This document shows, in pieces, positions 8,286 to 54,386 of a stretch of DNA of 64,000 nt; positions within the stretch are counted from its first letter, which is position 1; the number at the start of each line of letters is the position of its first letter. The notes under the pieces are model-generated. The model worked only from the letters and a program-made list of their open reading frames with translations. It was not told the DNA's origin and did not search any database. The position numbers were made by a program, and so were the translations under genes. Origin of the DNA: Cirrosporium novae-zelandiae (Eukaryota); NCBI GenBank assembly GCA_026023565.1, contig JAPETS010000009.1:248001-312000 (forward strand), read 5' to 3'.

Positions 8286-9098
8286 ATCGGCTAAGCTAGC
8301 TCGATTAACTATTGATTGAAGCGTCTTTCTTGAGTCCCGCGAACGAACGGACGCTTACTTACTCTATTCACTTGTTTAATCTCTGGAGTGATTCGATTCT
8401 CCTTTCTCCTTATGCACAGTCTTGCTTCAAATGCCTTGGCTTTTTTTTCCTATTATACATATTTTTATTGTTTATTGTACTTCAAAAAAAAAGGAGCCAA
8501 TCAGTACTGTACATACAAAGCTAGCTAGCATAACTCACTCTCTCGCATGTCATTAGGGCATCGTCAGACTTCAAGCCGAGGGGACTCTCTTGTCCCCTTT
8601 ATAAATATAATTTTTCTTGTCTCTGGCATCTGAATCCGTTGAGCTGTAGTCTCGAAAATACAATTAACTCATTAGAATAAATATTAAACAGATCACAATT
8701 CTTACCTTTCTTCCGAATCTTTTCGCACTTTGAATTCCAAATCTATTAATCTCTCAATATCCCACATCTCCACCCTCCCCCCCACAGCGCAGTCCGTCCC
8801 CTTACGGTACCCCACTTAAATTCACAATTCCAACAATATTTATCCTACTCCTCATTTAGCCTCTAAATAGTATCTATACTCGAAACCTAGAGCACAAAAA
8901 CCCCCTAACTCTATCACTATCACAATTGACCTAACTACGATACCAATCCATTACTAACAACTGGTACATCAATGTCACTAACACTAATGTTAAATACCAA
9001 TATCAAAAAACCCCTAAGCATCATTATCTATGGATAGTTAACTGCTTAGTAAGTAAATTTAGAGGGCGAGAAGAAGGTGACGTGAAGGATTGATTAGT

Positions 9099-9118
9099 TG
9101 TGTGTGTGTGTGTGTGTG
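9099..9118. repeat. (TG)10 microsatellite
   Basis: Read directly. Confidence 0.95.
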
Positions 9119-9320
9119 CAATGATTTTATTGTCTGTATATTCCGTTTATGTTAAGGATTAAGCTAAATATCATTTTCTTATAGTGTAGGTATAAGATGG
9201 CCGCGAGTGTACACTATGGTCCATGTGAGGGTACGTAAGGACAGTAGTGTAGTGTACACTGCAGTAGTAGTGGTAAAATCTTAACACTACCTGATTTGCG
9301 GCCACGCTATTTGTAAAATG

Positions 9321-10290
9321 TCAAGCAGCGGACAGCCGCATCTTTTTCATAGGTGGTTCATCACCCTCAAACTGCCAACATGGGTGCTCGAGTGCATCCT
9401 GGACCCTAATTCGCTGGTCCTGGTTTCCCTCCGCCCATTGATGCCTTAGCATCTGGATAATAAGTTCGCTGACTGTTATAGAAGGTTTGTTTGTAAGTAA
9501 GCATCTTAAACCTGTCAAGAGGCAGGTATACACTTACTCTGTGATGTCCTCTTAGCTTTGCTGCGACGTATTCTATCTATGGACTCACGGTACATGGCGT
9601 GAAATGTGGGCCTCAAGCTTTCGGAATCGGCCCCCGACCGCCATGGATTTATAAAAAATTTCCAGGGGTGATTTCCGCATGCTAATTCGTAGCCGATGAT
9701 GCCCATAGCCCAAACGTCAACCAAACAGTTATAACCTTGCATTTCACGCTCTGGTGCGAGGTACCATAGTGTGCCGCCATGACCTGGTGTCGGAGGGACT
9801 AAGGTCCCAGAGTGCAATTGCATTGCGCCTCCGATATCCAGTAGAATGGCCCGAGCTCCATTGATTCCGATATTGCCGGGTTTTAGATCTCCGTGAATCC
9901 ACCCGTGAGAGTGAAGGAAATGGACCCCTTGTAAGGCATCGTGGAATAACTTCATGGCTTCCGAGCTTATTCCTGAGAAGGATCTACTAGATCTTAGTGT
10001 ATATGTGTATACGATGTATAGGGACGAACTTATCGGCGAAGCTGAATATTCTGAATAAGTTGATTCGTTCCTATGTCTATAAGCTGGTCAAAGGTGCCTT
10101 TTACTAGAGGTTGAAGAACGAGGGCGACGTCTTCGAAACAGGTGGAAGTGTATTCCACCTTTCCATTCTGGTAAATTATATCCTTCAAAGATAGTAGTCG
10201 GCCCTCGTCATCCTCAGTTTCGGCTAACCTTCTTAGGTCTTTAAGAACCTGGATTTCTTTCTGCACATCAATAGCTGTCTTCCACAGGCT
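9321..10290 (-). pseudogene. Ser/Thr protein kinase, probably a pseudogene (N-lobe eroded, broken splice donor)
   Basis: KEIQVL (helix C), IHGDLKPGN, LLDIG (DFG equivalent), GTLWYLAPE, DVWAMG, and a last exon with RIRVQDALEHP. Stop at 10030-10032 overlaps a donor-like ATAAGT. No Gly-loop or VAIK seen upstream. Confidence 0.7.
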
Positions 10291-11653: not shown

Positions 11654-13767
11654 TCCAGACACATTTATATAAACAGGAACGGAAACGCTATCTTTCGAAA
11701 GAGTATCTGATACAGGGTCTAAAAAACACCAGGAATGACAAACAGTTTTTAAAACATGTCATGTTAATGTTAATACTTTGTGAGAATTCCACCGAATGCA
11801 CCATTCTCCGGATCAGCGCCCTCTACAATTTTCATATCACGACTTAAGCAGCATGGGCCTGGACACATCGATGCGACTAGAGAAGCTGGGCCCTAACAAG
11901 GAAGGGATATGAAAAACAACCGCAGAAAGTTCTCCAGTCAAGATTATCGGCAAGTAATCCTCACAATCACCAAGTGCTCTGCTACGGCCCCACAACAGAC
12001 TACATACATTTTCTGATCATCTTCAGCCTATGAAGCAACTACCAGTTTCCCTAGCAGCCGCCGCAACGATGTTTTACAGTTCGCAATGCTAGAAGCCACC
12101 AGAAGAAAGCGATTGAGTTTAATAAACAAAAGAGGATTATGGGTACTATAGTTCGAAAAGGAATGGAATGTCAGAAGTCTTGGGGTTGTGTTGAAACTTC
12201 TGCTCAGGCTTCGCTTCGGATGAACCAGGGACGCACACGCACACTATAGCTGTAACTCATCCTGAGGGTTCAACCAATGAATCCAATCATCATCCCATCT
12301 AGATATAGATAGCCCAATACCCATGTTCCCGAATTCTAAGCTCCCAACCTCTGAAGTAAATATACTGTACATGTACGTTCAAGCACTTTCCCATAAGTAT
12401 GGCCAGGTAAAACACCCTACCTGTAGGTACGCAAAAGTACAGTACCTACTTACTACCCCTACTATACTTTCGAAAGTATATACTACAACAAACTCAATCC
12501 ATAGATAAGCTCCCTTCGAAGCGCCCACTTTCAGACTTTCCCCTTTCAAGACGGTCTCAGGTCAAAACAATAAAATACAAAAAAAAGTAGTGGATCTATA
12601 TCTCCATGGAGTTGTGGGTGGTACTGGATGGATGGTTGGTTGGTTTGCTGGCTAAAGCAACTTAGCTAGGCAGCAAAGGTGGTAACAACAAGATGAAGAA
12701 GAAAGGCTCTACTTGAAGTAGTATTTAGCTAATTTAATTAATTAGATAAATTACAAAGAACTTTTTTATACCCCACCCACGTGCCCATGCTACAGTAGCT
12801 CAGCCCTACCCGGCTAGACCCGCCTACCCGTCCAGTCTACCCCACAGTCCCTATAGTCTCCACCTACTCGAGCCTACTAAGTCCCACCAGTTCAAAGTTT
12901 AAAAAAAGCCCCCCCCTAAAAAACAAAACAGAAAACCCTCCACTCCACTTTACGCCATCCCATCTCAATTTTCAAGCCCTGAAGAACCCTCGAAGGGAGG
13001 GTATTCTCTTCACCAGCCTCAGAACCCCCCAATATTCACTCCATCTTTATTGGAGAAGGAGAAGGAGGAAGAGAGGGGGGGGATTAATGAAGTGTAATTC
13101 GAGTAGTCCGGTACTATCGTGGCGGAAATTGTTATTATTATTATCGATGGCTAGTGAAGCAGGAGTGGGAATGAGAATGGGAATGAGAGATATTTAGCAT
13201 TTAGTCTAGTTCATAGGGCTGGACTGACGGTTATGACCCCCCCCCCCTCTGTCCCTTCTTTCTTATTAGGCTAAATAGTATGGTAATATATCTTAGCTAT
13301 CAAATTTCCAAATTCCCAATCCTGAGCGATTAACATGACCTTTTTGGTTAGGTTGGGTTTTAAGGGTTGGGTTTCAAGGATAAAGGAAGTATGCGATTTT
13401 TATCCTTTCCTTTTGGAAGGAAGCTGGAGGGTATTCAGTATCTAGTATTTAGAGAGTAAGTGGTATGTATTATGGGTTAGTTGGTTGGCAAGGTGAAGAG
13501 GAAGTTCTATTTTTTTTTTTTCTTTCTTTCTTTTTTCTTGCTCGCTGCTCTCTGCTTCCTTTATATACATACATACATACATACGTATATTACATACCGT
13601 TTTAACTCCAAGTTAAACTTAAAGTTTGAAAAATCCCCGAGCCCTAAAGTAACTAACCCACTATCGCGGAAATGGCCTTAGCCGTAGTAAGTACTATTGT
13701 TAGACCAAGACCTTGATTCCCCCAAAGTCAGTTGAGTCCATATAAATGCGAATAATGAAGTGAAAAC

Positions 13768-13789
13768 GGGGGGGGGGGGGGGGGGGGGG
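13768..13789. repeat. Poly-G run (22 nt)
   Basis: Read directly. Confidence 0.9.
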
Positions 13790-14056: not shown

Positions 14057-15117
14057 ATAAATATTTAGACTACCTGGAATATTACTAATAGAATTAGTCT
14101 ATATATATTTGTTATTCCATTTAGATTAGATAATTAACGGATTTGATAAGGTGTTTGTGAATCAAAGTTCAAAAAACTTTCTCGGCACTCCGCTAAGACC
14201 GGCCAGACCAAGGCCCTCAATCTGGTCGATTCCCTTCCCTGTTCAGAATCCTTTCTCCCCTCCTCACCTTCCGGTAAAACTCTAAGCCTACCTACAGTAC
14301 TTGCCTAACTCGGTTTATATCACCAACTACGACCAAATATATATTTCCTTCTATCCCTGTTACGGATACCTTATATGACTAGATAGATTGCCCCATTGTA
14401 ACAAGCGGGTAATCACGTCCTTTTGGCTTAGGGGTAAAATTCTAGCTTATCGCTAACAATCCCATTCTGATTCTATTCGACTCGATTTCACTATCTGCTA
14501 TCATATATATATATACTCTACTCCACAAACGAAAAAAAAAACTTCTTTTTCTCCTGTTTAATTTGCTATTATTTTTCAATGAAAAGTTATTGAGTAGTTT
14601 AAGTTGATAGTACTTAACTCTCTTTAATAAAACACACGATAACCTAACTAGACATAACCTAACCTCCATTCAATCTTTTTGTAAACTCTCAAGGGTTGAC
14701 TACTGTGAAAGAGTTACCAGTTTTTGGCTGCCTAGGGCACCGAATGAGGGCAAACCTCTATTCGGAAAGCTCTAGGTAAGCAAGAACAGGGGACAACACA
14801 CCGGAACCTCGGAGTTAGTTTCTTATCCATTTACGTACTAGTCCTAGACATAGGGTACAGCTATCTATCTATATAGGTAGCTGTACGCCCTGATAGACAT
14901 AGACGAATAACAGATTTTTTTGCTCCCTTAATTCTTTTATTTTGTTTGGTTGATTTGTTTGTCTACTCTAAGAATCACGTATTTATTTATTTATCTAGGT
15001 CCTATATACGATACCGTTCCTATAGCTGCCCCAGGCCCCTTATATCCTATACCCACAGCTCTATCTAAATGCTCAACCCTAGCACTCTTTCACACTACAA
15101 ATATTCCTACCGTTTCA

Positions 15118-18100
15118 TCACAAATCGTCCATTTCATCCGCCAGTTCGCTCCCAATGAATGCACGCCTAGTTTGAACATCGTTCGCCATGCTGTGGCTGA
15201 ACTTTGGGTTTAGGACCGTTGCTTGTCGTGGCGGCGGAGTCTCATAAGACATATGTATGGTTGGTGAACGTCCTCCTTCTTGGCCATTCAGATTGATTGC
15301 TTGGCGCAGATAGAGAGTGTCCTGGGCATGCCGAACGACTCTTTGGGGTCTATCATTGTATGAGTATAGATAGTCTTGCCCATGGATATATCCCTACTTA
15401 TCGGCGTATATGTCGTCCTCTTTAGAGTACACCGAAAGACTCTGCGAAGAGCTCGTAGGATACTTCTGCTTCTGGCTCTGGAAGCGGTCAAAGCGGTCGC
15501 GGCGTTCGTATGCAAGTTCTGCGTCGTTTTTGCCCGCTGTATCGGCCATGTAGCTGTCGAATTCAAGCGTTGCAGTTGCTACGATCTTGAAATGCCTCTT
15601 CGTCAATCGTGGCGTGCCAATACGCGCATAAGGATCCCTCTCCAAGCGCTCCATATACTCAGCGCGCATATCGTGGTACGCAAGAGACAAGGCAATTTGG
15701 AAAGCGTTTCGAATTTGCCGGCCATTCCATCTCCCTTTCCCGTGCGAGAACTTCTTAAAGTGTTTTTTCGCAAATTTTAGGATTTCATTGTTGTCAATAT
15801 AAAGGGGAGGGTCTCCGGTCTGTTTCCGTCGTTGTTCCTCAACCTTTCTAATTTGCTCAATATTCATCTTCCAAATCGCCGTCGTTTGCTCTTCCTCAAG
15901 GGGCGGGTAGTACAGGCTCATGTGGATGCGCGATTTGAAGGCCTCATCATGAGTCCCCACTCGGTTTGTTGTTAAAAATAGAATCCCATTATAGTACTCA
16001 AGGACTTGCAGAAAGACTACGCTTTGTGTAAGCCATTGCTCGTATTGATAATTTATGGTATGCTTCAACTAACCTGAAACCAGTGCATTTCTTTTCAAGT
16101 CAGTCCTCGATCTCTGTGAGAGAAAGATGTCAGCCTCGTCGAGCAAAAGTATGCAATCCTACAGGTGCGCTAAACGGAATATTTCGTTGAGAGCCGATTC
16201 GACATCTGACGGCGTGAAGCCAAGGTCCCCACAGGTTATCGTGAAAAGCGGCTTCTTGTTTGCCTTCGCTACGCCTTCTGCCGTAGATGTCTTGCCAACC
16301 CCTGGTACGCCGTGTAACAGGATGACAATTCCTCTGCCTTTTCCTTGGATCACATCCTGATCGAGACTATCGGCGTAGTGTACCTTTTCAATCCCTTTCT
16401 TCACGAAGTGGGAATCTACTAATGCTTGGACCATATTTTTATGATTCCCGGGAAGTTTTAGACTTTCAAACGCAGTTTTTTGTTCGACGACTAGACTCGA
16501 GTACCGAATATCTATCTGGAAAAATTTGCGATTTCGAAGTACATACGCGAAGAGTCGTTTTGGCAGTAGAACGAGATCTTCTTCACGAAGGTCCTGCTTT
16601 TCTATGTTTTTGTTCATTCCCTGTTGGTGTGTACAGCTGATGAGAAACTTGTCTCTCCTGAGGTTTTCATTTCTTTCTCTCATAGTAACACCTTCGGTAA
16701 CTTGGACATGTTCAGCGATCTCTGAATCAAGCCTTTTGCGATCCTTATCTGACCATTGGTTAATCAAGACATTATCGAGTTTTGATGAATAATCCTCATC
16801 GACTTGTAGTGGTACATGCAATTTGGGCCTCCACTCTGGGTGCACTTGAAAAGCTTCAAAGAAGTCAACTATGATATCACTATCGACATACTCTAGATGT
16901 TCCCTCTCAGCTTTTATGGGCCGAGGTTCTTCTACAGAGTATCTTCTCACTCTTTCTGTTTCTCCAGGATTACGAGCAATTGTCACCCCATTGTAATATA
17001 GGTGTTTTGCTGCAGAATAATCTTGGAATATCTCGCCCCGTTCTTTCAATTCTTTCCAGATCCGGTCGTGATTCCGGGCAAATCTAAATGGATATATCTC
17101 CAGAGATAGGATATCACGTTCACCCTCAAAATAAGGAACGATGAATTTTTTTCGAACTGCACCGAACGAGGCTCCGCTGTAATCGATGTAATAACACCTA
17201 ACTTTGAAGGTTGTTAGTTTACCACCATCATCACCATCATCACTATCATCTCCAGAATTGCTCCTATATCAGAAAACCCTTGAACGCCTAACATATTCAA
17301 TCTTTTCTTGAATAGAATCGCTCCCAGAGTCTGGATAACTTTCACGCCTAAGAATTTGTCTGTGTTTATTAACGCGGGAAGCTCCCATAGTCCATTTAAG
17401 CTCTAGGGATGGAAAATTGCGGATAGTTGATTGATGAGAAATGGAATAAATTCTCCAAACAGCCTGGTACGATGAAGATAAAGGAGACCTTGTTATATCG
17501 TCATCTGGTCGCTCTGAGCGGATAGGAGCATATACAATCTCCCCCGTCCGGAAAAGATATCACAGATCATCGAAACGGACCTTAGGACGAGAATTACTCT
17601 GACAGCCATCAAATTGATGGTACAAGGGGATGATCTTCTTGTCAATAAAATTAACGTAGCATCGCATATCTCTTAACGCTTCAGGACTATCCAAGAGTGG
17701 GTCCAGAGTTTCTTCGATATCATCGTTATGAGCAGAGCTTCCTTCAAAATTCTGGTCGGCTAAGCCAGAGCCCTCCCTATCGGCGATCTTACTATCAGAG
17801 TTAATATCTTTCTTCAAAGAAGAGCATGACATCTCTTCTGTTGTTTGCATAGTCTTTGTGTCATCTTGCTTTGTCACTGTATCACTCGAGTTCTTGACAC
17901 TAGCAGATTCTTGTCTTTCGAGTTCTCCCCATTTAGATTCCAGTTCACGGAGGGCCTCCTTCATCTTTTCATGAAAATAAATTATTGTTTTGAAGGGCCT
18001 GAAGAAAGTCCGCGGTTTCGAGGCCCATGACTCTCCAACGATTTTTCTGAGTATGGCAAGAATAGGCAATGACCGTATACGGACTCGCCGGGGCCAACGT

Positions 18101-18690
18101 TCCTCAGTCTCAGCCTCAGCACTGCGTTTTGGCTGCGCTATCAATTTAGCCTTGTTAGGTGACAGGATCGGATTTGATCTGTATGTGTTTATAATCGTCT
18201 GCTCCGTCCAGATTTCCTCTAGATTATGTCCTGCAAGAAGAACCTCAATCGCGTAGCGGGAGTCCTCTTCGCAATAACGGTTCTTGAAATCTGAAAAGTT
18301 GACGGTTCGTACCTCCGACATGGCCGGAATTCTCGCCGGCTTTCTATATTCGGAGGCCTCAGTCTCAGAGGAGGAATCATAATCGACTTCTTCTTTTACC
18401 CCATGCTTGGGTTTTGGTTTCAGTCCGACTTCAACCTTTGGAAAACTCTGGATGGCCGTGAATCGTTCTTCGAGCATGCTCAAACGGCTTTCAAGATGTT
18501 CTAGGTAGTCACGCTGAACTTCAACTACAGAAGCTTGATTCTGTTGTAGTGGTGCCTTAGTTAGATCCTCCTTGGCATCTGACCTAGCTTTTATAACAGG
18601 GGATTTTTCGGAATTGTCTTGGGGTGCTGTTTCAACATCTATTCCATTAATAGTTTGGATGGTCACTGTATTTGGCCCTAAGGCTTTCAT
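15118..18690 (-). pseudogene. Large fungal AAA+ ATPase with DUF7025-type N-terminal region; four in-frame stops, no frameshift seen
   Basis: Motifs RVRIRS, RPFK, RFDDL*YLF, CYYIDY, Walker A HGVPGVGKT, Walker B LLLDEAD, FLTTNR, AFKSRIH, WNGRQIRN. Stops: TGA 17560-62, TGA 17269-71, TAG 16159-61, TAG 15394-96. The frame stays open about 90 codons to TGA 15118-20. One intron near 16020-16073. The true start may be slightly upstream (ATG 18801). Confidence 0.9.
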
Positions 18691-20001
18691 GTTATGTGGT
18701 TGTTTGGCAGAGGTGCTATTGCCGTGGGGCTCTACTGCCTACAAACTCCTAAATCAGCATTTATTCCATGAAGAGTAGAGGGGATTCCTCGCCTCTTCCA
18801 TATTGCGCGGCTCCTAGTGTTGAAGCTGCTGTTGACGGTGGCAGTTTGCTTCCTCGTTATATCGTGACAGGAGGGAGAGTGGTAAGGACTAAGTTGGGCT
18901 TGGGCTTAAGGCACTCCGACAAAGTTTTTGTAGATACAGAAGGAAAATTCTTGTTAACAAGTAGCTGTACTCATAATTTTACTACAATAGGGTGCCTCGG
19001 AAGTAATACTCCCCTCTACCTTAATGATAGAACCTTTAACTGCTTACATGGGGTAGGCGCTACGAACCCTGGTGCCTAGGTCTAAATCAATATTAAGTGA
19101 AACGGCACAATATCCATGCTACCTAAATATTAGAAAACCTTTTCAATAGCGGAATTAGTTGGTACTTCTCTGGATGTGTTACATGGTAGAGCGCCGAACT
19201 GGATGAAGAATATGAAATGCGACATACATGTTACGGACAGCAAGTTTATATAGCTAAATTAGGTTACTCGCTTTAACTAGTGGGTAAACCACGTCCTTTT
19301 GGCATAATGAATATCACTTCGCGGCGACGTGCCCGACTAGGAGATTAGTAGATCAATTTTAAGGTGGATTTTGAGCTGAGAAGATCTGCAGCCCCGCCAA
19401 GTATCTACTCGAGTACCTAGGTGGGGGGTGCATGGGCCATATAAAAACCTCGTTTACAAAATGATCACTATCGTCGGTAGAATTTACAGAGAAAACAATT
19501 ACATTCTTTGACTGTTGATGAATAGCTGTGTAGCATTAATAAATAATAGCACATGACTACCGAATAATTAATATTTAGAGAAACTATAATAATAATATAA
19601 GTTGGTGTTTAAAACTAGCCGATATTACAATATATTGAGTAACCACTGTAAATAATAAGTATAGTCAAATGGGCTCGACCTTCAGGCGGTGATTATGGCT
19701 GAAGCTGAGAAAACACCCCAATGTAAATTTATCCTTGAAAGGTAACTCCGGTATTTACCTTTGACCTAAAAAGCAAAAGGCTTGGCTTCCGATGTATCAC
19801 AAAGCATTCTCTTAATCTATTCTTGGTATCATCTTCGCTGCGAGCGGAACGAGCTCTCAGCCCTATGCACTGTGATTTCTAATGTTGCTCCCCCTACGAG
19901 TTAAGAACCTCGCCGTCGTTCTAGAAAACCCAACTCGAACTATAACGGAGAGGTGCTTTAAGAATATCTTTCAGGGTGCACTTGACTTGAAACTGGGAAC
20001 G

Positions 20002-22058
20002 ATGACCATCGAATCCGCTAGAAACTACGTCGACAAAACAGGCACCACGCCATCATTCCGCTTTCGGTGTCCCAACGCACTTTGACAACCAACGGGCTGA
20101 GTACACAAGACAAGAATCTTACCAGTACGTTCAGAAGCTAGAGGACAATTTCTTTGGAAAAATACTGATAAACACATAGTGGTCTTGAGGAGGCCTTGGA
20201 GCAGTACCAGGCCATCGCAAAGCCGCCCCCTTGATTTCGATGTCAAGACCTGTACATGGAGAGATGTCCTTGATAAGGCATCCAGAGCCGAAGATCAATA
20301 TATTGCTGATGGTAAAGGTAAAAGAAATCTGGTTCGAAAGATAGGCAGGAAGGCAGGAGATTTCGCCCCGGCCATAAGCCCATAGCTAGAGATGGTACCT
20401 AGCGATAAAGGGTTAGTCGTATTGAATGGGGGCTTGAAATTGATCTTTAAGGTAGGAGAATGCTACTCCATTATAAAAATTTTCTGACCGTCCTCCTTTC
20501 TGAGGGACATAGATTGCAAAACAGAGAGCAGAGAAACGGGAGAAGGTTATGGAAACCTTTCATGAAATCCCCAAGATTGTTGAAATGGCACAAACCAAGC
20601 GGCAAATTTTCCCGTCGAATCAGACACTGAAAGATCGAGCTGTCAATTTATATACGACCCTTCTGCATGCCATCACAGGTTCAATCGCCGAATTGGTTCG
20701 AAAGAGCTTGAGTAGGTCCTTATGTCCCAATCGTGCAACTTTTATTTTCTAACATATTTTCACAGAAGCTCGCACGGTTGACTTTTTTAAGGGACCGCTT
20801 GCAGGAAAACCGATCGATGAGATATTAGGAACAGTCCAGAAAAGTGTGCAAACCCCTTCGAAATTGTGTAGATGATGTCAAGAACCAGATGTTAGCGGAT
20901 ATAGGTAACTTTGCCATACAAAGCAAACCAGAGCTACGAGCAATCCGTTGGGACACTAAGAAAACTGAAGTCGAAGCACGTGGGATCAGGACCGACTTAG
21001 GAAACGTGAAAGGAATTGCACAAGGCATAAAGGGTCAACTCTCCGGTGTTGAGGATATGGTACTAGAAGTCAAACGGAAACAAAATGAGATACTCAAGCG
21101 GCAGGATGAGAAGGCCCAAAATGATGGAATAAGGGCTAAGAACGATCTGTTCCAACTTTTTCTAGACGAATTGCGCAGTAAGGACCCTTTGCGATTGGTG
21201 CAAATAAGTAATTCTACTCACTCTGTGAACAGAATTTAATTTAGAAACAGAAAGAGAACGAGCCTCGCACCCCGAATCCTTTCAACCCCTGGTCCCTTTC
21301 TCTCCTTAGCCGAATTGCTCACACTACTTCAGATACCCCATATGATGACAAGCAATGATCTTGACTATGTGCTCAGGCAGGGCAGCGACTTTGATCTCAC
21401 CGCACAAGGCCAAGCGCGATGGCTCCTGCGAACACGCCAGTTTCAAGGCTGGCTTTCCCCCAGAGATTCGGACCTCCTACTCGTCGATGGTAATACGGAC
21501 TCCTCTATAGGGGGAGGGCTATCGCCACTGTCCCTCCTCTGCGCTACGCTCGTCCTCAGCTTTTTTAAAATGAGGCCTCGGCCTATCTCACTGCACTTCT
21601 TCTGTGGCCAGCACGACGCCCCCGACGATGTGCTCAAAGGCCCCAACGGACTCATCAGAAGTCTTATTACCCAGCTCCTCCTAACGCACCAAATGTTTAC
21701 CCTCTACTTCATCAACTCACATCAACATTGCACAGGCCTTGAGGCACAATCGCTCGCTGCTCTCTGCAATACCTTCCAAAAGCTAGTCAAGCAGCTCCCG
21801 CCTCGCACGCTCATCTATTGTGTCCTGGACGGTATCTCGCTGTATGAAGGAACAGATTGGGACGGCGACCTAGCTTTTGTAGTTGATCGCCTGAATAAAA
21901 TCGTCAAGGATGAGTGCTTGCAGCCTACATTCAAGTTGCTTATGACGAGCCCATACTTTACCCGCTCTATACAACGTCAAATAAAGCCTTCTCAGCATGT
22001 CGTCCTTCAGGAAGGCATAGCTGATGGTCAATCCATCTCTCAGCGTTCTTTATGGTAA
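20002..22058 (+). pseudogene. NACHT/NPHP3-N-like protein with helical N-terminus, coiled coil and degenerate P-loop
   Basis: Four GT-AG introns (about 20125-20179, 20452-20512, 20712-20766, 21178-21232). Motifs CTWRDV, GGLKLIF, FQGWL, LLLVDG (no GKS/T), LHFFCG, LIRSLITQLL, YCVLDGISLYE, KLLMTS. Lesions: +1 shifts in runs at 20035-38, 20226-30 and 20853-56, plus TAG 20383-85 in place of a likely Trp. Confidence 0.8.
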
Positions 22059-22169
22059 TTCATGAATAAGTTTGCATTTTCCACTAACTAAGTATAGCTA
22101 CCGAGATTCAGTAATGGCAATGACCCGTTGCATTGTGATCGCTGGGAAGTTTTTTTTTTTTTGCTTGCC

Positions 22170-22960
22170 TTTGTGATCAAGTTGCACATAATGAAGAATA
22201 GAGTCATAATTTGGAGTGCTTCGTTAGATCTCCTAGACTAGCAAATGATTTAACGAGCCTTTCGAAAGATAGGCTCTCTTCTCCAAAGTAGAGGAAGCAG
22301 ATAGTTGACCACTTTTCCTAAAACACCGATAGCATAGCTGCACTCGGTGACTACTTCTCAGTGGCCACGGCGACTATCTATGAACAGGCTTCTTTGGTTG
22401 ACGTTAGACTCGCTCTTATGGTACAGTACATGGCCGTCCACGTGGTTAGACAGTTCTCTCTTCACGGAATTTGCAGTGGGTAGCAACAGTATTGATGATA
22501 GCACCACGCCGGCGAAATTCCACTTTCAAGGCTGTTCCCGGGAGCTAATATTCGAGACAGACGTGAGATTCGAGGCCACAAAAGCTTTATCGGCAAGAAT
22601 GAGGCCCAGAAGAGCGACATGGGGACTGAGAATCAGGGGCAGATAGAATTTCTAGTATAACCCGAGGCTATCGGATGCCTTATGCCTTTAAGCCTTCTTC
22701 TACCTTTCCCTCGACGTTGATCCAATAGCTAATCGGAGAAGACCTTCATTGTACGATGAGAGATAGTTGGCATAACCTGATTAGAATCCTTGCCTGTGTA
22801 TTAGTAGCATCTATAAAGTAGTTAGACAAACGATGAAACTGCAGGAGAAAGTAGATGAAGAGAATGAATAATTGCCTGTGCTATCGTTCCTCGATCCCGT
22901 CAAGGAGATGCTATTGTCTGTATAATCCTCATCCTCACTACACCCGAAGCAGTAAGTGAC
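22170..22960 (-). mobile_element. Internally deleted relic of a DUF3435 tyrosine-recombinase gene (Starship captain family)
   Basis: Colinear motif blocks on the minus strand: acidic N-terminus; FSD*LLDQRRGKGRRRLKGI; SLGLY*KF; LILSPHVALLGLILADKAFVASNLTS; LPGTALKVEFRRRGAIINTVATHCKF; AAMLSVF*EKWSTICFLYFGEESLSFERLVKSFASLGDLTKH. Recognised from recall of DUF3435 proteins. Confidence 0.75.
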
Positions 22961-24075: not shown

Positions 24076-25757
24076 TCACTGGCTAAGTTGATGGCTCTTT
24101 CGGAAAACCTCTCCGTTGCCTGGTACCGTGAACTCATGTTTCCACCAAAGACAATTTATGTCGGTTTCATTGCTATCGTGACCATTCCCGTCAGCGTTGC
24201 CAAAATTGATGACGTAATATTCTTTCGGATAATCTATACAACGACCATATTTTATGCATTCGTTGTGGGACATGTGCCAAAACAAGCTATTATGTTGATA
24301 CGGCTCGAGATCGAAGCCGTCCGAATCAAGGCCCATAAAACATACTTGAAGATTGCCAGCTCTCTCGCGTACGTCAATAAAAAAGTTACCAATCGAGTTG
24401 TAATACTTTCCAAGATATTTTTGCAATGAGCGAGCTGGTCTATCAACTGTTTTGCCTTGTATCAGCTTTTTCTTGACAGTTTCCATGGTCGAAGTGCTCC
24501 TTTTCGCAGCCAACCGGGCGTACTGGGTATAATCGGTTACATTGATTGTGTTGCCAAACAATTCCTCAATAAGGAGCTGGCCAACCAGTCTCACGCCACC
24601 AGTCAAAGCAACAGAATTCGAAAGAATAACAACTGCACTGGAAGTTTCGGGGAAGACTGCGGCAAAAGACGTGAATCCGGGAATATTTCCTTCATGAAAT
24701 AGCCCCAAGTCGCGATGGCAACCCTTCGCCAAGAATGGGGATGATACCGGGAGCAGCACCAAACCCTATTGGGGCTGGAAGTTGCACACGAACCCAACCG
24801 GATGCATAAGAGTTTTCGAGAATCGTGGAAAGAGGGAGGGTAATCATTCCTCGCCAAAGATGCGCTAACTTCTTCAAGGGATTGCGCGGAATCTTCGATT
24901 TGTGGTGTTCTATCTGGATCTTCGCCGCATCTATAAATGCATTGTAGAGGATAAGCAGGTCATGAACGGAGCTTCGAACTCCGCCAGCGGATCCCACCAT
25001 AAAATTGTCTCCATGTAGAGGTGGCGGAAGTTGAAACGCAGTAGCGTTTTCTAGCGTAGCATATGGCTTTGCAGTGTTTTCGGCATGAATTGAAAAGTTG
25101 GTGTAAAACGTTCGGGTCATTCCTAGTGGATCAAGGATGTGATTTCGCAAGAACAAGAAGTAGTGAGCGCCAGGCACTTTCTCGATCGCTTGACAAGGAC
25201 TTCGTACACCATGTTGTTATAAACGAACTCGGTCCTTAAGGGTGCCGCAACGGACACATAGCCAAGTATCGGAACTGCATCTGCACGATCCAACGAGACT
25301 CTGTTGTCCGATAGTAGCCAGAGTGCGTCATACGAAGGCAATCCAGTTCGGTGGGATAAAAGATCAGCAATTGTAATATTGTTCGTCGGGTCTTTCTCTG
25401 GTCGCTGGAACTGAGGGGTGATATCCTGCAGTTGCGTGGTCCAGTCCAATTTCCCCTCGTCGACCAAGATGGCGACCATGGCAGCAGTCAGGGCTTTCGT
25501 TAGCGATCCTATAACGTAGGTAGTATTCTCGTCTGGACAAAGCTGAGCATCAATATCACGAAAGCCAAAGTTTGCTTGGTGTATGCCCTCTCTATGGTGA
25601 AGGACACCGAACGATAGCCCTGGCATCCCAGATATGGAGCATATATGTGTGATGGCCGACTCGAGAGCTTGAAATCTTCCGACAAGCCTACACCAACCGC
25701 GCGATTAATATTATTGCTGGCAGCGCAGACAGCCAAAGTAACCAAAACGACTTACAT
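24076..25757 (-). pseudogene. Beta-lactamase/serine-hydrolase family protein with C-terminal DUF3471-like domain, frameshifted
   Basis: SGMPGLSFGV, IGSLTKA (SxxK), DLLSHRTG, FVYNN, ILDPLGMTRT, AGGVRSS, HEGNIPG, GKYYN. Frameshifts near 25195 and 24705; ATG-TAA at the start of the signal peptide. Confidence 0.85.
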
Positions 25758-39729: not shown

Positions 39730-40572
39730 CTAGTCGCCAAGGACATAATCAACCCGACACCAAAGCGTCACCGCGCCAGCCGTCAAAACCCCCCCAATCC
39801 CTCCCGTAGAACTCGTGGACGGTGTATAAGCATTATCCACATAATCCCCATTACTTGTGATAATGGAACACTGGCTAAAATCCGCCGTACAAATCCTCAT
39901 CCCCTGCACCGTGGCACCCGCATTCACAGCCTGAATATCCGAAACATCCCATCCGGACCACTCAGAATTTTCCCCGTCTCCGAAATCAAATTCTCCCCAC
40001 GTGCTGTCGTAGCCGCCGTAAGAGTCTGTAGGGAGAGAGGTACCCTTGGCGGTTCCCCATGCGCCCTGGCTGTTTTCGTCAAAGGCAACCCAGACTATGT
40101 CGCCATCGGTGAGCGTGAAGCTGACTGCAGAGTGACCATACCAGCCATCCATTAAGCCGTCTGGTCCGATTTTGTTCCAGATGCTGACAAACCATGTATC
40201 ATCGCAGTCGCAGTCAAGCATGAAGCGAACGGTGTATTTGTATTCTGAGGCGACGTCGGCATCGACGATTATGATGTTGGAACCCCAGGGGTTGCCAACG
40301 TTGCCAACATATTCTTCTGAGTTGCCGGCAACTGTGGTTGGGGACGTACGTGCACCGAAGCCGCTGGTTCTGTACGTTGTGGCTGCTACGCCATGGTAGT
40401 TGGCGATTGTAGCATTAGGTGCAGGGGTGGTAGTCGCACCGTCGGCGGTAGAGCGCTTAATAACTTCATGTGGGTATCTATGCAAGTGGTTTGTAGAGGG
40501 GTGGGCAAAGACGGAGGTGGCACCTAGCGCGAGGAGGCTAAGGAGGCCAAACAAAGAGTTGGTGGGCTGCAT
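39730..40572 (-). CDS. Secreted allergen Asp f 4-like protein (280 aa)
   Basis: Signal peptide, KR processing site, GNVGNPWGSN, WNKIGPDG, VAFDENSQG, WGEFDF, SGWDVS; intronless. Confidence 0.88.
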   Translation of the reverse strand: MQPTNSLFGLLSLLALGATSVFAHPSTNHLHRYPHEVIKRSTADGATTTPAPNATIANYHGVAATTYRTSGFGARTSPTTVAGNSEEYVGNVGNPWGSNIIIVDADVASEYKYTVRFMLDCDCDDTWFVSIWNKIGPDGLMDGWYGHSAVSFTLTDGDIVWVAFDENSQGAWGTAKGTSLPTDSYGGYDSTWGEFDFGDGENSEWSGWDVSDIQAVNAGATVQGMRICTADFSQCSIITSNGDYVDNAYTPSTSSTGGIGGVLTAGAVTLWCRVDYVLGD

Positions 40573-41799
40573 GGCGGATGCTCACTTTGGATTGCTATTT
40601 GAAAAATATATTCTTCTGGTCAAGGAGGGGTATATATAGTAAGGAGTGTGCTCTAAAGGAGTGGTTGCAAGTTAAATCTGTTCACACATAAGCAAGTGCA
40701 CCTGGGTAGAGACCGTGGGAGGAAGCTGAAGACGGAAAGGACAACGAAGAGGATATCAGGGCAGACTTAAAAGAAAACGGGAAAGACGAGATTCGGGATT
40801 ATCAATGGGAAGTAGCAGTGAACCTCCGCACTATACAGTCACAATGAATTCATCTCGGCGACATTCGCTACAAATCCCACAACGCGATGGCAGGGCATGG
40901 CTGTGCTAGTTCCTACAATAACCCCCACGAGGCCGTAGGGTTCAAGACGAGAACTTCAACTCATCAAGGATCTTAGGGAACTTGAACGGTATCTAGTAGG
41001 AAGGCGAAGATGGTGAATAAGAATAAAGAGACGCAAAGAGTGGAGAGCTGTACTGTACAAGGTGAAAGAAAAATATCTGTAGTATTATTCTGATATTCAG
41101 GTCAAAATAGCCAACTTGGTATCAGATTGTAGTTTCAGCAAATGTATTTAGAGCGGAAGGCACGAGGTGGTACCTGCACGAGCATTGGAGTGAATGGTTA
41201 AACCATATCTTTAACCATCTTCCATCGATCCAGCCTTGCCAAGGTTGAATGTAACCATCTAGGATTGGAAAGATGGATGCAATTTTTCCTCATCCGTCAT
41301 CTATCTTCGACCCTAAATTTCGGAAGGATTCAGTGGTGTGATTTGGTAGGATAAGGTAAAGTATTCGAGCTAAAAGATGATTTTATTGTCAAATTTTTAT
41401 TTACATATCAATCGAAGTGCCAATAATTGTTTGTGATGAGCTTGTTTTGTTATTGCATTGAATCCTTCGCTCTCATTGATTTTTTTTTTGAGACTCATTT
41501 TGGTCGTCGATAATTGGCTGACATTGGTTGTTCCCTCGATGAGGTTCACGGGGTAACCAGACTGCAGAGCTGAAGTTATGGGGTCCATAAAGAAGGTCAA
41601 TGAATCTTATCTCTAGGAATTTAAGTTAGGTGAGCAACACACTCCCCTATAATTTAATAGTAACTTTGAAGAGTTATAATATTTTCCCACAACAACATTC
41701 AATGGTGTTTTGAAACCAAACTCGTGGTAAAATTCCGTAACATTCACTTCCCGTAGCAGCGGAATAATTCCTCGTTAGCGGCCACAAAACGCAATCTCG

Positions 41800-44692: not shown

Positions 44693-46629
44693 TTACGCAG
44701 CTGCCCTCCCCTTCAAATTCTTATTCCTAATAAGCAACGCGGACATCATAATAACACCCGCAATTGGCACCGCAGCAATATAAATATTATTCAAGCTCTT
44801 TAAATACGCCTTGACCACGTTCTTCCGCATTTCACCCTTCAGCTTCCAGATCGCATCAACCGAGCCCTTGACCGCTTGTGCTGGCGCATTTGGCGCGTAA
44901 CGAGGAAGATAGATGTCTAGAGAATTACTCAAGATTGCGGATGCGATGGTGGGACCTAGCATTCCACCAAAGAGCTGGGCGAAAGAAACGATGGCGATGG
45001 AGATTGGGATTGCTTCGGGTTCGTTGTCGACTTGAACAGACAGAAATGCGACATTCTGTGTGAAGCCGATTCCCATGCCGTAGATGATTTGGTAGCCGAT
45101 GAGGCGGGCGCTGGAGGTGTTTGCGTCGACGGTATAGAGAAGCCCACCACCCAATGCGAGGAATATTGGGGACGTGTAGCCCCAGTGAAAGTAGTTTCCG
45201 GTCCAACTCATGATGAAGCCTTCGATAATTTGAGAAACTACTACGGTGAGGAGAAAAGCGATTATTTGGAGACCAGCATTTAGAGAGGAGACGCCGCGGG
45301 CGGCTTCGTAGAGGACAGGGAGGTCAACGGCCACGAATAGGTTACACATTAAGGTGAAGAGGGCGAGACTGGAGGCGCCGACTACGGTGCGGTTTTTGAA
45401 GGTACCCGGGGGCATGATGGGCCAGATGGCATTGAATTCCCAGAGGACGAATGCTGTCATTATGGCTCCAAAGCCGACGAAAAGGCCAATGACGGTGGCG
45501 GAGTTCCAGGGGTATGTTGAGCCTCCCCATTGAATGGCTAGTAGGAGGCATATAAGACTACAGGTCACGATGAAAAAGCCTGGAAAGTCGATAAGTGCGG
45601 TGCGACCCATCCATCCGTCTGTTTGGTATTTCCACTTTCCTCGCGTGACTTTTTGGAACCGTTCATCAACCCATGTTTGAGTGGATTCAACGAGAGGAAA
45701 AGGGGGGAGAGAAGGTAGAGTCCACAGATTAACAAGTGTGGTGATTACTCCAATGGGCAGGACGATCAGGAAACACCAGCGCCAACTGACATTGTCTGCA
45801 AAAACACCAGCCAGGATAGGACCCACTGTGCTTGAGACGGCATTCTGTAGACCGAAGAGACCAAGGATAATTGGTCGATTCTTCAACTCTACAAGCATGG
45901 CCACAAGAGTCTGGACAGAAACCCAGCAGCCAGCAGCTCCGATACCCGTGAATGCCCGCCCAAGGATTAAGGTTTCAATATTATGAGCTGCCCCAGATAG
46001 CAGAGACCCAAACATGAAAAATCCAATGGCTACAATAAGGACATATTTGGAATTGAACAAAGCAAGATATTGCCCAAAGAGAAGCATGCAGGGGCACTGC
46101 GTCATATAGTATGCAGATGCAACCCACCCAAGTCGATCTAGAGCATTAAACTGAGATGCTACGATCGGTAGGGCTGGAGCGAGCATGTTGCCTCCCATGC
46201 CAGTGGTGAATTCGCTTAGAATCCAACCGCAAAACGCAAAAATAAGCTTGCGGCCATGCAAATACTCGCGCTCTTGATGCTCATAATGCATACCCTTTCG
46301 AGGGCCTCCAAAGTCCACATCCTCGATGTGCTCCGCTGTCTCATGTGGTAGTCTCACGTCAAGATTGCCAGTAGCAATGTCGATGTGAGAATATTCAGCC
46401 GATCCTGGTTTAATGTTAGTTAGGTTTCGAAGCTGAATCAGGAGTGCAATTTGCAGCTCGTACCTTTCTTGTCAATGCTTGATCTTGGACGAACATTCTC
46501 GTGACTTGTTTCGTTATGCTCCTCATCACTCGAATCACGACGGTGAAAAGTGTGACGATGTTCAAGCTCCGCAGGAGTCGGAGCATGTGGGGCGGCTCCC
46601 TCAGGGCTGAGGTGAATTTGATGTTCCAT
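44693..46629 (-). CDS. MFS DHA2 (14-TM) efflux/transport protein
   Basis: Exon 1 MEHQ...DKK, one intron near 46405-46463, then in frame with the 554-aa ORF. Motifs APALPIVASQF, WVASAY, GRAFTGIG, GPILAG, WRWCF, WGGSTYPWNS. Confidence 0.93.
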
Positions 46630-48449: not shown

Positions 48450-50461
48450 TTATATTTTGGTTCTGATAACCCTTTCCGACAGTAGATCTTCCTTGATTAT
48501 ATCCGCTGCCTTTTCAGAAACAGCATATACGCTTGACTGGATATTTCCCCTTGGGATCAATGGGAAAATACTAGCATCAACAATTCTCAAATTGTGGGTC
48601 CCATAGACCTTGAGACGATTATCAACAACGCCTCCGAGATCCTTTGGCATCATGGCACATGTGCCGACTACGTGATAATGAGGTACAATCCGCTCCTTTG
48701 CTAATTGCTTAGCTGCTTCCAAATCGTTTTCAACACTATTGCCATGAATACGTCTACCGTCCTTCTTAAACAGAGAAGCCATCGGTTCGGTTTTTGCAAG
48801 GGTCTCCAGCCACTGTACATGTCGAGCATGGAGCTCAAGGTCAAGAGGGTGAGTAAAGAACCCGACGTCCAAGTCTGGTTGGTTGGCTGGATCAGCCGAG
48901 TTTATATGAACCGAGCCGCGAGAGAAAGGATAGTTAAGGACCGCAACGATAGATATGTAACTTCCCGAGGTGGTTGGCGCAAAGATGGTCTTTGGACTGG
49001 GACCATTTTGAGGATTCAATTGAAATGGTGCTAGCCATAATAAGCCTACCTAATCATTTCTTACAATTTTGAAGCAACTCACCTAGAGTATATTGGCCAC
49101 TAGCATCGTTCGCATTTCGAAAGATTTCACGAATGAGCTCATATTGTTTTTCCTGACCAGGAAAGTCCTTGAATTTGTTGCTATCCAGATATTGGTCGAT
49201 TAACTTGTCAATGGTGCTGCTACCACTCTCGCTGGCAAATTCAGCCACTGGCATGTAGGATGAAGAGAGACTACATATGCCCAGTGGTCCCAATCCCGAT
49301 TGTTGATAGGCCGCCATAGCAGCTCCAGCCACCTCAGGGTTTCTCATAATATCCCCTGATGTTTTTTCATCAGCAACCTCCCAGCTGTGAGGTACAAATC
49401 CATGTTCTTGCAAGTTCTCGCCAACAAGCCGATTATTGATAAGAACTTCAATCCTATGCGAATTTAATAACTCTGCATCACCAATGCCCGACAACTCCAA
49501 GAGTTGCGGCGTTTTAACCGCTCCTGCGGCAAGAATCACCTCTATCTTCGCATGAACGTTTTGTTGTTGGCCATCCTTGGTTACAATCTCAACGCCGACA
49601 GCTGCAAAGTTCTCTGCATCTACCTTCTCTAACATGATCCTTTCTACCAACGCTTCAGTTATCACATGTAGATTCGGGCGCTTCCGGACCTCAGCATTGT
49701 AGTAAGCATTGCCAGCGTGACTCCGCGTGTTTGTCTTCGGATCTATTGTCCCAGGATTGCTAAAAGCACCTTTGGAAACACCAGACAGTGGGTCACCTGT
49801 AAGTTCATATCCTAGCTGTCGGAAAGTCTCGGGCCAGGCGTCATTATAAGGGGTGTACCAATCCTGCCCCCAGGAAGCTTGAATAGGCCCGCTGGTACCC
49901 TGTATGTTTTTGTCCAAGTATTCTAATCCTAAGCGGTCACGAATTTTGGCTGATGGGGGATTGAAAGTATGGAACTTTCGAAAGTAAGGGACCATGTCTT
50001 CCCAACCCCAACCAGGGTTACCCAATTTTTCCCAAGCATTGTATCCCGCTCGCGACGGATAGATCATCATACCCAGATTGATAGCTGTTGAGCCTCCAAG
50101 CAAACGGCCCTTTGGTTCCGCAACTTGACGTCCGTCCAACCCTTTCTAGTCAGGTAGATAACACATCAGCGACAGAACATTCTAACGGATAGGCAAAGGT
50201 TTAGACCTGGGGTATGCTCATGTGGCACCAGTCATAATCCGGATCGAAGTATGTAGTTGCACAGAGTCCTGGTGTGATGACTCGCGGATCATCGAGGCGA
50301 TTAGCCCCAGCCTCGACAACGAGAACATTAAGGCTTGGATCTTCAGTTAAACGGGAGGCCACCACGAGGCCTGATGTTCCACCGCCAACGATAATGATGT
50401 CAAAAGTTTTAGAACTCAAGGAAGCCATAGAGATACTATCTGCGAAGCTATCAGCTGCCAT
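48450..50461 (-). CDS. GMC oxidoreductase (AA3_2-like), 3 exons, no signal peptide
   Basis: FAD motif IIVGGGTSG, GRLLGGSTAIN, EVILAAGAVKTPQLLELSGIG, VGENLQEH, SRGSVHI, HVVGTCAM, LRIVDAS, GNIQ. Confidence 0.95.
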
Positions 50462-51063
50462 GGTGAGTACACAAAACCTAATCTGGGATTTTGAAAAAGT
50501 GAGGGGAGATAAAGGGAAAATGGAGGGCAGTTAGCACTATCATATTTATGTGTCACGAAGATCCATTGATCATCCTTGATGACAATTGTACTTGATGGTG
50601 TCTTTTTCTTCCTGGTTTTTTCTTCAAGCTAAACACGTAATGGGAAATTCTCCTATGCCTTATCGGAATGGCGTTCGGAGTTGAACCTAAATCTCGGCTG
50701 GCTCCTATATAAACCTAGCTCGCGCATTCTGAAGGATTCCAATGATCCATTTTTGTCTCTATCGGAGAGGGTGGCTGGTGAGTTATCATGGATGCATTGT
50801 GAAGTAAAACGGTAGGCTTTGATGGAGAAGGCTTTGGTGGGAGTGGGCCCGCCTAGCCGGCGGAACCCTATCATGTCAGCCCAAGCGAGTCGCGACAAAG
50901 TAAGTTAATCCTTGCATTTTGTCAAGTACCCCCACTAATCACAATATTTAAACATTCAACGACTCTACATACTCCAAAAATAAACCATCATACGTTCAAG
51001 GTGTTTAACCTTAAGGAAACATTTCATATTTTTATACACCTCTGGGACTAATTATATTCATCT

Positions 51064-52840: not shown

Positions 52841-54386
52841 GGTGCAATGGCTTTTTGTAAGATTCTAGAGCTATTGAAAAGCTCCAGGAGAGTGTACACA
52901 TCTTTATACGAGATCTAAGGGAACGGGAATAACAATTCCGTATAGATTTGATCATAGCTGCGATAAGAGAAGAAGATACGATTGACTTCTTCTTTGTCAT
53001 ATAGATTATACCTGAATATTGGGCATAGATATACGATAGCGGAAGAAGGCCGAATTGGTTGAATTGGCCCTGAAGAATGGAAGAAAAGAGTCGGAGCTTG
53101 AAAAAGATCCGAAAAGATGCGTGGGTCAAGCACATGCCAAGTAAAAGCCGTTAACCGTGCGTGCCGTTACCCCTCGCCGGGTGGCTTTTCTTGGCAGGGG
53201 AAAATTGTTCTTAGTACAGTATTTCTGTGGCTTCTGTTAAGGATTCCGGAAGATACCGTGCCAAGATTAGATAGTATAACTAGAATATTTTGGATAAATT
53301 TAATAAAGAACCATACACAAAATCACATTTCAGAGCACTGTCATGCCAGGTGTTCGTTGGCAGTATTTTCAAACGTCCTGTTTAACTTGCGCTTCGGTAG
53401 TACAAATTCCTTGGATCATTTCTAAGTAGCCTAGTTGTCTGAACCCCAGGAGACTAATACCGCGGAACACCTTGACTAGTTTTTCCTCGGAGCTTCCAAG
53501 TACCACTGGATGGCTCGGAAGATTCTACAGCTTCAACTTTTGCACGTTTCTCAAAGAACGAGATGGGGCTTAGAGCATCGTTGGATAGCTGGATAAATTT
53601 AATGATGAATTTGAAGGTTTCTATTTCGTCCAAGAATGATAAATGTTTGTCCTTTCCAAGTATTTTTTATTGCTAGACTGGTTTCTTGTTCACTAGTGGG
53701 AATCCATTAGCGCTCATCCCCACCTAAACGAATGAACAAAAAATATTCCAGTTCCATTTCCCTCTCACGTTGCGCAGGGAAAGAGTCCAGGGCATCCTTT
53801 TTTACTTACATCACAGGGTGCCATCAAGGGGGCCAGTATCCAAATATCCCCTAATCCTCACACCACCACAAAACCCCTAGTTAAATAAAATACAAGAAAC
53901 TCCACCATATATAGATAAACCATACACTCATATCATCATCAGCCTAAACACTACTTACTACATCTATAATTAGTGTGTAGAAGTGTAGGAGGCGAGGATA
54001 TTTGATTAAAAGATACAGGGAGTAGGGCGAACAGCGCGGCATGTTGCGCCAAACTTCCGGGCGTGGGGTCTGGGGGAAAGGTTTTTTGGTGTTTGTTGTA
54101 GGGCAACCTGCCCCCCACATCCGCCCCAAACCTAATCTCAAGCCCCCTGTCACCCCAATAACCGGCATCAATCCAAACTTAACCTAACCTACAGTAACCC
54201 CTATTAACCATCGACCTCTCTGCCCTAGTTTTAATACTCAGCTTTGTAAGGCTGAATAGAGTACTGAATAAAGTATCTAGGGGTTGTAGGATTGTAGAAC
54301 ATATTCCACTGTTATTTCAAAACATTAACATATTTATAGAAAGTATACTTGAAGAAATACACGTCGTGATTATCTATATTGTTATT

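Follow-up and report, generated by a model that had tools for sequence, protein, structure and literature searches.

Fungal NOD-like receptor (NLR)-type proteins are the closest described relatives of the system examined here, and their architectures, in which a DUF7708/Goodbye-like N-terminal domain and a NACHT (NPHP3_N) core are joined to WD40, ANK or TPR repeats, are surveyed in several papers (PMC4986451; PMC9815663; PMC12258605). The DUF7708/Goodbye group is related in one of these papers to death domains of the HeLo/MLKL type (PMC9815663), and adjacent fungal genes for an NLR-type protein and a second cell-death component are described for NWD2/HET-S in another (PMC4344463). The system reported here lies in a 64,000-nucleotide stretch of DNA from Cirrosporium novae-zelandiae (contig JAPETS010000009.1, positions 248,001 to 312,000; hereafter the window), which belongs to a metagenome-assembled genome placed by NCBI taxonomy in the Xylobotryomycetes, Pezizomycotina. 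It consists of two divergently transcribed genes, one encoding a AAA+ ATPase with a DUF7025 domain (the AAA gene) and the other an NLR-like protein with a degenerate nucleotide-binding site (the partner). Both are pseudogenes in this copy, and the same pair is found intact in many other moulds and in lichen fungi. Fungal NLR-like proteins are numerous and very few have a known mechanism; for the DUF7025 AAA family, whose members run into the thousands, no mechanism is known at all.

The pair shares features with several described systems and differs from each of them. Like the repeat-bearing fungal NLRs, the partner has an NPHP3_N/NACHT core and apparently a DUF7708-type helical N-domain, but 149 of 155 members of its family lack GK[ST] at the P-loop, and these proteins have no repeats, are about 650 amino acids long and have a AAA+ neighbour wherever the neighbour is visible. 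Head-to-head NLR gene pairs of plants (RGA4/RGA5 and RRS1/RPS4, for example), where the P-loop of one member can be dispensable, offer a possible parallel, in logic only: the orientation is equally divergent, and the other member would supply the activity. Both plant genes, however, encode full NLRs, whereas in the fungal pair a classical AAA+ ATPase from a different clade is the active member and the NLR-like one is truncated. NWD2/HET-S-type pairs combine signalling through a short amyloid motif with a complete, P-loop-competent NLR and a HeLo pore-former, whereas the neighbour in our pair is an ATPase and not a pore-former of this type. The AAA protein has the same Walker A, Walker B, sensor-1 and second-region-of-homology arginine as VAT/p97/Cdc48, NVL/Rix7 and Msp1/ATAD1, but its single module follows a fungus-specific folded N-region of ~560 amino acids, is accompanied by a family-specific lid (AAA_lid_13) and has no aromatic residue at the aligned pore-loop-1 position. 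The partner resembles Sir3 and the subunits of ORC (non-catalytic AAA+-like scaffolds) in keeping the fold without the catalytic motif; sequence profiles, however, place it with NACHT/NPHP3_N and not with ORC. The AAA-NACHT pair is not mentioned in the passages on fungal NLRs in PMC9815663 and PMC12258605, and literature searches found no paper naming DUF7025, DUF7708 or AAA_lid_13 and none describing the pair (supplements not covered). The pair looks like a previously undescribed two-part system akin to paired or split NLR-type modules.

The locus is laid out as follows.

15115..18690, minus strand: AAA+ ATPase pseudogene with the order DUF7025, AAA, AAA_lid_13 (Pfam, single-frame tblastn)
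18691..20001, no strand: 1.31-kb region between the divergent start codons, a putative bidirectional promoter (sequence)
20002..22058, plus strand: partner pseudogene with a DUF7708-like helical N-terminus, a coiled coil and a degenerate NACHT/NPHP3_N fold (tblastn, Pfam)

An earlier note on this DNA, made from its letters alone, had described a minus-strand DUF7025 AAA+ gene retaining Walker A and B, sensor 1 and the arginine, facing across about 1.3 kb a plus-strand, NACHT-like partner with a helical N-terminus, a coiled coil, LLLVDG..SPLS at the P-loop, VLDGIS as Walker B and no repeats. Pfam and sequence analysis bear out each of these elements, including the spacing, which we measure as 1.31 kb between the start codons.

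The arrangement is conserved well beyond this genome. A pattern search of public metagenome contigs with the partner alignment returned 24 loci, 12 of which contain a match to the AAA protein, in every case on the opposite strand and upstream of the partner; in the remaining 12, no more than 1.5 kb of DNA precedes the start of the partner match, too little to show a AAA gene. Counting the near-duplicates L004/L005 and L022/L024 once each, the paired loci represent about 10 distinct lineages, in which the first matches of the two genes are 0.4-2.5 kb apart and partner identity falls as low as 25-30% to the Venustampulla reference P0006 that served as tblastn query. Comparison between loci by tblastx revealed no third consistently conserved block around the pair. 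Among named genomes, both families carry consecutive locus tags in the window (M1834_009557/8) and in four others, those of Venustampulla echinocandica, Penicillium canariense, P. macrosclerotiorum and Polytolypa hystricis (BP5553_05124/5, N7482_009594/5, N7462_001906/7 and AJ80_02941/2). The two genes also lie on equal-sized contigs in Cytospora mali, Mollisia scopiformis and Xylariales sp. PMI_506, and on one further contig of 8,560 nucleotides. These named genomes come from several fungal classes; five of the seven pairings among them derive from 20 partner representatives looked up against 120 listed AAA matches, the other 15 representatives being uninformative. Adjacency and divergence of homologues, which the earlier note had proposed as a check, thus hold in all 12 informative contigs.

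The two gene trees, which the same note had suggested comparing, are congruent as far as they are resolved. For 17 pairs (the fragmentary rows L011 and L021 and the duplicates L004 and L022 were dropped), 9 of 14 splits are common to both trees, compared with a mean of 0.48 and a maximum of 5 in 2000 label shuffles. The tree distances are correlated (Mantel r 0.887, a value reached in 0 of 5000 permutations), and all well-supported groups are common to both trees, deep branches being unresolved in both. This congruence speaks for co-inheritance and not for protein contact. These observations indicate that the divergent AAA-partner unit is a conserved feature of filamentous ascomycetes and not a local accident.

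Two motif sites of the nucleotide-binding core of the partner are located as follows.

21474..21533, plus strand: strand beta-1 and degenerate P-loop site LLLVDGNTDSSIGGGLSPLS, with no GK[ST] (sequence, alignment)
21810..21839, plus strand: Walker-B-like strand LIYCVLDGIS, its Asp kept in 145 of 155 relatives and the next Gly in 120

At the first site the window copy reads LLLVDGN..GGGLSPLS, so that GGGLS stands at the P-loop in place of a Walker A. Across the family the consensus of this site is G-[RK]-[IVT]-S-P-[ML]-S, and G-K-[ST] occurs in 6 of 155 members. The position of the former P-loop lysine is occupied by Arg in 86 and by Lys in 36, so that 122 of the 155 keep one of the two, a residue that the window copy has lost (Gly). 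One of 150 relatives, P0224, has a full Walker A here (GAFAVGKT), which indicates that the family descended from a working NTPase. At the second site, compared with the pattern hhhhDG.DE, the Asp-Gly is kept, the acidic pair is replaced by I-S, and a Glu/Asp follows three places on.

A profile search with the partner gave 3307 matches at E<=0.001, and the threshold of E<=1e-30 is passed by 919 clusters; lengths range from 233 to 791 amino acids in the best 150 of the 3307. Pfam scans of 18 members found NPHP3_N in 14 and DUF7708 in 7 (best E 5.6e-07) and none of the repeat families WD40, ANK and TPR, which, together with the rarity of G-K-[ST], agrees with the picture of a repeat-less family that almost never has a canonical Walker A. 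With this, each of the three observations by which the earlier note would have been refuted (rare adjacency, incongruent trees, and a canonical Walker A plus repeats in homologues of the partner) has turned out in favour of a coupled pair. The window copy matches NPHP3_N at 2.4e-11. The DUF7708 match lies under the Pfam cut-off in P0006 and P0007 and the model of the N-domain is of low confidence, while P0013, P0178, P0314 and P0326 carry the database name 'Goodbye domain'. In a predicted model of P0006, the region of residues 390-610 has a predicted local distance difference test score (pLDDT) of 70-90, against a whole-model mean of 56. Residues ~390-610 superpose on ORC/Cdc6 (Z 11-13; for the match at Z 13.1, root-mean-square deviation 3.3, 165 aligned), Avs3 (Z 12.5), Sir3 (11.4), STAND-TPR (10.2), ZAR1 (10.0) and Apaf-1 (9.2). 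In these predicted models, the C-domain of the partner is a P-loop NTPase (ASCE) core fold of the STAND type. A Foldseek search of the model against the PDB gave no match at E<=0.001, and coiled coils were the sole matches of a PDB sequence profile search. The core is followed in the P0006 model by ~50 mostly disordered residues, and no Pfam match was found after it, where a helical/winged-helix HETHS region would lie (no dedicated domain model was made). Neighbouring clusters in the ESM Atlas, taken as a lead only, have 81 to 624 members, all ascomycete and some with NPHP3_N and DUF7708; a further protein search with the 18-sequence partner alignment gave 3 matches only.

Within their last 15 residues, many partner relatives have an acidic stretch and, at one of the final three positions, an aromatic residue (..DDYN, ..DSDEW, ..EEDQF; P0005, P0006, P0011, P0013). 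Among 103 full-length relatives the aromatic residue occurs in 54, the acidic stretch in 40 and both in 25. This tail may be a docking motif; no C-terminal tail is recognisable in the window copy. A canonical fungal NLR is also found in the window, 32 kb away from the switchless partner and in contrast to it (54370-58207, plus strand), with DUF7708 (1.6e-10), an NPHP3_N/NACHT domain reading GIPGSGKS and GIDGLDEY, and WD40 repeats; its coding sequence is spread across several frames, either through introns or through lesions.

The AAA gene starts with an ATG at 18690 and ends in a double TGA at 15120-15115, giving ~1,171 codons if read through, all in a single tblastn frame (-2). Pfam matches in its open reading frames are DUF7025 (5.2e-14), AAA (5.1e-07) and AAA_lid_13 (1.6e-14); DUF7025 precedes the AAA module and AAA_lid_13 follows it, with full matches also in P0055 and P0074. 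Its motifs and one intron are located as follows.

16288..16311, minus strand: Walker A GVPGVGKT, intact, invariant in an alignment of 25 relatives
16129..16152, minus strand: Walker B ILLLDEAD, intact (sequence and alignment)
16017..16073, minus strand: 57-nucleotide in-frame intron GTTAGT..TAG, itself containing a TAG (gap in 44 of 45 homologues)

Sensor 1 (TTN, in LFLTTNR) and the SRIH arginine (KSRIH) are also present in the window copy, and Walker B, the sensor-1 Asn and the second-region-of-homology Arg align with the same motifs of VAT (in the alignment shown for the homologue P0055). The high-scoring segment pairs (HSPs) of P0055 are split at the intron site (residue 824/825) in most related loci (L001, L003, L005, L006 and L022-L024). 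By sequence, the AAA module matches VAT, p97, NVL, Rix7 and Msp1, with E values from 6e-12 (VAT D2) to 6e-8 (Msp1), and by fold it matches classical-clade AAA proteins with Z of 8-10. The predicted model comprises disordered ends, a confidently folded N-region (~140-720) and one classical AAA module; fold searches with the whole model returned the ATPase module alone, with no fold match for the N-region (140-720). The AAA protein of the pair is apparently a competent ATPase.

Outside the intron, the AAA gene of the window has four in-frame stops and no frameshift.

17560..17562, minus strand: TGA replacing an invariant Trp (FDDL*YLF; Trp in 44 of 45 homologues)
16159..16161, minus strand: TAG at an invariant Trp codon, separated from Walker B by the two codons for Asp-Cys (LAHL*DCILLLDEAD; Trp in 45 of 45 homologues)
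17269..17271, minus strand: TGA inside a window-specific insert of ~45 codons (gap in 38 of 45 homologues)
15394..15396, minus strand: TAG in the variable C-terminal tail, followed by 91 further open codons and an acidic end resembling that of some homologues

The TGA at 17269..17271 may be a lesion or may belong to an unannotated intron, for which only a weak 96-nucleotide candidate (GTGAAA..AG) can be drawn, and the TAG at 15394..15396 is either a premature or the natural stop. Of 150 highly conserved columns the window copy differs at 6, two of which are the Trp stops, leaving 4 substitutions in the remaining 148; intact homologues used as controls differ at 0-12 of such columns. Apart from its stops, the AAA gene is thus as well conserved as its intact relatives, which points to a recent death.

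The partner, which is encoded by four exons (introns 20126-20189, 20452-20512 and 20712-20765; tblastn frames 2, 3, 1, 2 and 3), is more heavily damaged.

20043..20046, plus strand: +1 frameshift from MTIESARNYVDKTG (frame 1) to PRHHSAFGVPTHF (frame 2), seen by three-frame translation against P0006 and P0007
20226..20230, plus strand: +1 frameshift in a run of five C, ..AIAKPPP / LDFDVKTCTW.. (tblastn, three-frame translation)
20850..20856, plus strand: +1 frameshift at AAACCCC, ..ILGTVQKSVQ / PLRNCVDDV.. (tblastn, compared with P0003)
20383..20385, plus strand: in-frame TAG (AISP*LEMVP against INPWIDLIP; Trp in 14 of 16 aligned homologues covering the site)
21237..21239, plus strand: in-frame TAA in a variable linker, which the deposited model excises with a 57-nucleotide intron (21198-21254)

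Introns as a cause of the frameshifts were rejected, the shifted segments abutting directly. The earlier note had spoken of a few lesions in both genes; the partner, with three frameshifts and two stops, is more damaged than this.

A second assembly of the same reads contains one contig of 10,808 nucleotides (k-mer depth ~369) that spans 15065-22200 with zero differences or gaps, and this identity shows that the lesions are not an assembler artefact; the sample is the same, so the second assembly is not independent. No comparable damage was seen in other window genes where they were inspected, and an in-frame stop in an amino-acid permease gene of the window falls within an intron. Both genes are pseudogenes, and the locus is a recently inactivated copy. 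The public annotation conceals this state through truncation and invented introns. Its models are partial: P0054 (743 amino acids, the AAA protein of the M1834_009557/8 pair) is 100% identical, skips both TGAs with a 300-nucleotide intron that removes the conserved WYLFRTGEIVY segment, and ends at the TAG, whereas P0002 (444 amino acids, the partner) is 95% identical, starts at an internal Met and splices out one frameshift and the TAA. The locus thereby illustrates how gene callers can mask such pseudogenes with invented introns and shortened models.

Decay is also found at three of the metagenome loci. In L021, a fragmentary contig, both genes are wrecked, with six stops (five in the AAA gene and one in the partner, at 8877-9796 and 10259). 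In L001 (at ~6999) and L005 (at ~5669), a Trp and a Gln at conserved codons of the AAA gene have become TGA and TAA, respectively, and the partner HSPs contain no stop. The stops in these three loci could mostly be produced by C-to-T or G-to-A transitions. Joint decay is therefore seen in 2 of the 4 decayed loci, and within the window the partner is the more decayed of the two. The earlier note had considered that similar decay in both genes would fit functional coupling; the window and L021 are compatible with this, but the stops confined to the AAA gene in L001 and L005 weaken it, and joint decay is in any case compatible with coupling without being evidence in itself. At least two further partner paralogues, M1834_009504 and M1834_003629, are present in the same genome, and the loss at this locus thus fits the birth-and-death turnover of a multi-copy family.

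We consider it probable that the two genes form a real functional unit that is dead in this genome. Gene 1 encodes a AAA+ ATPase of the classical clade, whose extensive folded N-terminal region includes DUF7025, and gene 2 a protein of ~650 amino acids derived from fungal NLRs, in which a probable DUF7708/Goodbye-type helical N-domain and a long coiled coil are combined with no more of NACHT than its alpha/beta core. Both genes would be co-expressed from the shared upstream region of 0.4-1.5 kb, and their products would act jointly. The nucleotide-blind NLR-like protein may serve as scaffold or executor, and the AAA+ protein may supply in trans the ATP-driven assembly, disassembly or activation that an NLR would otherwise carry out with its own NACHT domain. 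By analogy with other fungal DUF7708/Goodbye-NACHT proteins, the likely setting would be a conflict or cell-death pathway, such as a non-self or stress response. It is possible, though on balance doubtful, that the pair is an old and widespread 'split NLR' of filamentous ascomycetes, in which a switchless NACHT protein would be loaded, checked or fired by the AAA+ machine encoded head-to-head with it. The partner would then bear a death domain, its energy-using step would be outsourced to another class of ATPase, and rapid turnover under conflict would account for the many copies in which Trp and Gln codons have recently become stops. If true, this would be NLR-type signalling with its energy step moved to a different ATPase class. 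The conserved pairing gives the switchless NACHT and AAA+ families a testable context, namely whether an ATPase substitutes for the lost nucleotide cycle of NACHT, and intact pairs are available in tractable genera (Penicillium, Aspergillus relatives and Cytospora).

A number of observations weigh against this account. Congruent trees and adjacency are equally expected from block inheritance or duplication, and gene orientation is known for the metagenome contigs and the window only, not for the named genomes. The AAA-only stops in L001 and L005 show that decay of one gene is not always accompanied by decay of the other. In size, the AAA family far exceeds the partner family (2851 scored matches among 7999 candidates). 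A tree of 128 AAA sequences places each of the 15 rows with a known pairing in the long forms; a strongly supported clade of 86 shorter forms (~930 amino acids), paired or not, contains none of them. Pore loop 1 has no aromatic residue, GDLGLTP (GDLGFTP in the window) standing opposite LSKWVGE of VAT D2 in a pairwise sequence alignment only, and a substrate-threading 'remodeler' role is therefore not a given. The full Walker A of P0224 makes 'nucleotide-blind' true of most partner members but not of all. Contact between the two proteins, the roles of adaptor and remodeler and a link to defence or allorecognition, as in the two-component module proposed in the earlier note, are parts of the account that we infer. 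A complex prediction for the Venustampulla proteins (AAA 136-720 with partner 365-654) gave a score of 0.00; run without alignments or controls, it is evidence neither way.

The strongest alternative, which we regard as unlikely, is that a bidirectional promoter or chance inheritance as a block is all that keeps the genes together, their products working in unrelated processes. Tree congruence would follow from such co-inheritance alone, and in L001 and L005 a stop is found in the AAA gene only. Against this, divergent adjacency persists down to 25-30% protein identity in 12 of 12 contigs while the other neighbours all differ, and the pairing recurs in named genomes of several fungal classes.

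Somewhat less likely still is a selfish or mobile cassette of the poison-antidote or driver kind, in which the NLR-like protein would be harmful and the AAA+ protein its keeper, and which would spread and die as a unit. The several partner paralogues per genome (M1834_009558, _009504 and _003629), the variation of flanking genes among loci, the heavier decay of the partner here and the recurrence of nonsense mutations, which in four loci (the window, L001, L005 and L021) hit conserved codons for Trp, Gln or Arg, would all suit such a cassette. However, the pair is not flanked by terminal repeats, whether inverted or direct (the best candidate is a 36-nucleotide pair with 72% complementarity), and the 64-kb window holds no second copy of it. 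AAA-only stops beside a seemingly intact partner in L001 and L005 also fit poorly with an indispensable antidote. Repeat-induced point mutation (RIP), for which the usual thresholds are a TpA/ApT ratio above ~0.89 together with a (CpA+TpG)/(ApC+GpT) ratio below ~1.03, has left no composition signature in the gene bodies, where these ratios are 0.62-0.92 and 1.12-1.39.

That the genes still function, their stops being edited (A-to-I, turning UAG into UGG, as in some Sordariomycetes) or read through, or the lesions being artefacts or minority alleles, is very improbable: the AAA gene has stops only and keeps its conserved columns as intact homologues do, and three stops fall exactly on Trp codons, but the three partner frameshifts, which editing cannot mend, make such a rescue unlikely, the second assembly at depth ~369 shows no variant (same sample), two of the AAA stops are TGA, with the A after a G, a poor context for editing, and to our knowledge such an editing system has been described in other fungal classes only.

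The surroundings of the pair add several minor observations. Just downstream of the partner, positions 22210-22853 have ~40-58% protein identity to positions 1506-3553 of L005 (tblastx E 3e-17), where the matching segment lies beyond the 3' end of the AAA gene, that is, in another relative position; it is unannotated and was not seen in other loci. On the other side, the AT-rich spacer downstream of the AAA gene contains poly-C and poly-G runs of up to ~20 nucleotides at 13237-13264 and 13751-13787, 0.5 kb apart. No transposon-type domains were seen among the window open reading frames that were scanned. Neighbouring frames lie at 9515-10087, 24076-25704, 39730-40581, 44693-46471 and 48450-52864 on the minus strand and at 59829-60680 on the plus strand, and the types of protein encoded around the pair are ordinary ones: a protein kinase fragment, a beta-lactamase-fold/DUF3471 protein, an Asp f 4-like allergen, an MFS transporter, a GMC oxidoreductase, a carboxylesterase and a glycosyl hydrolase.

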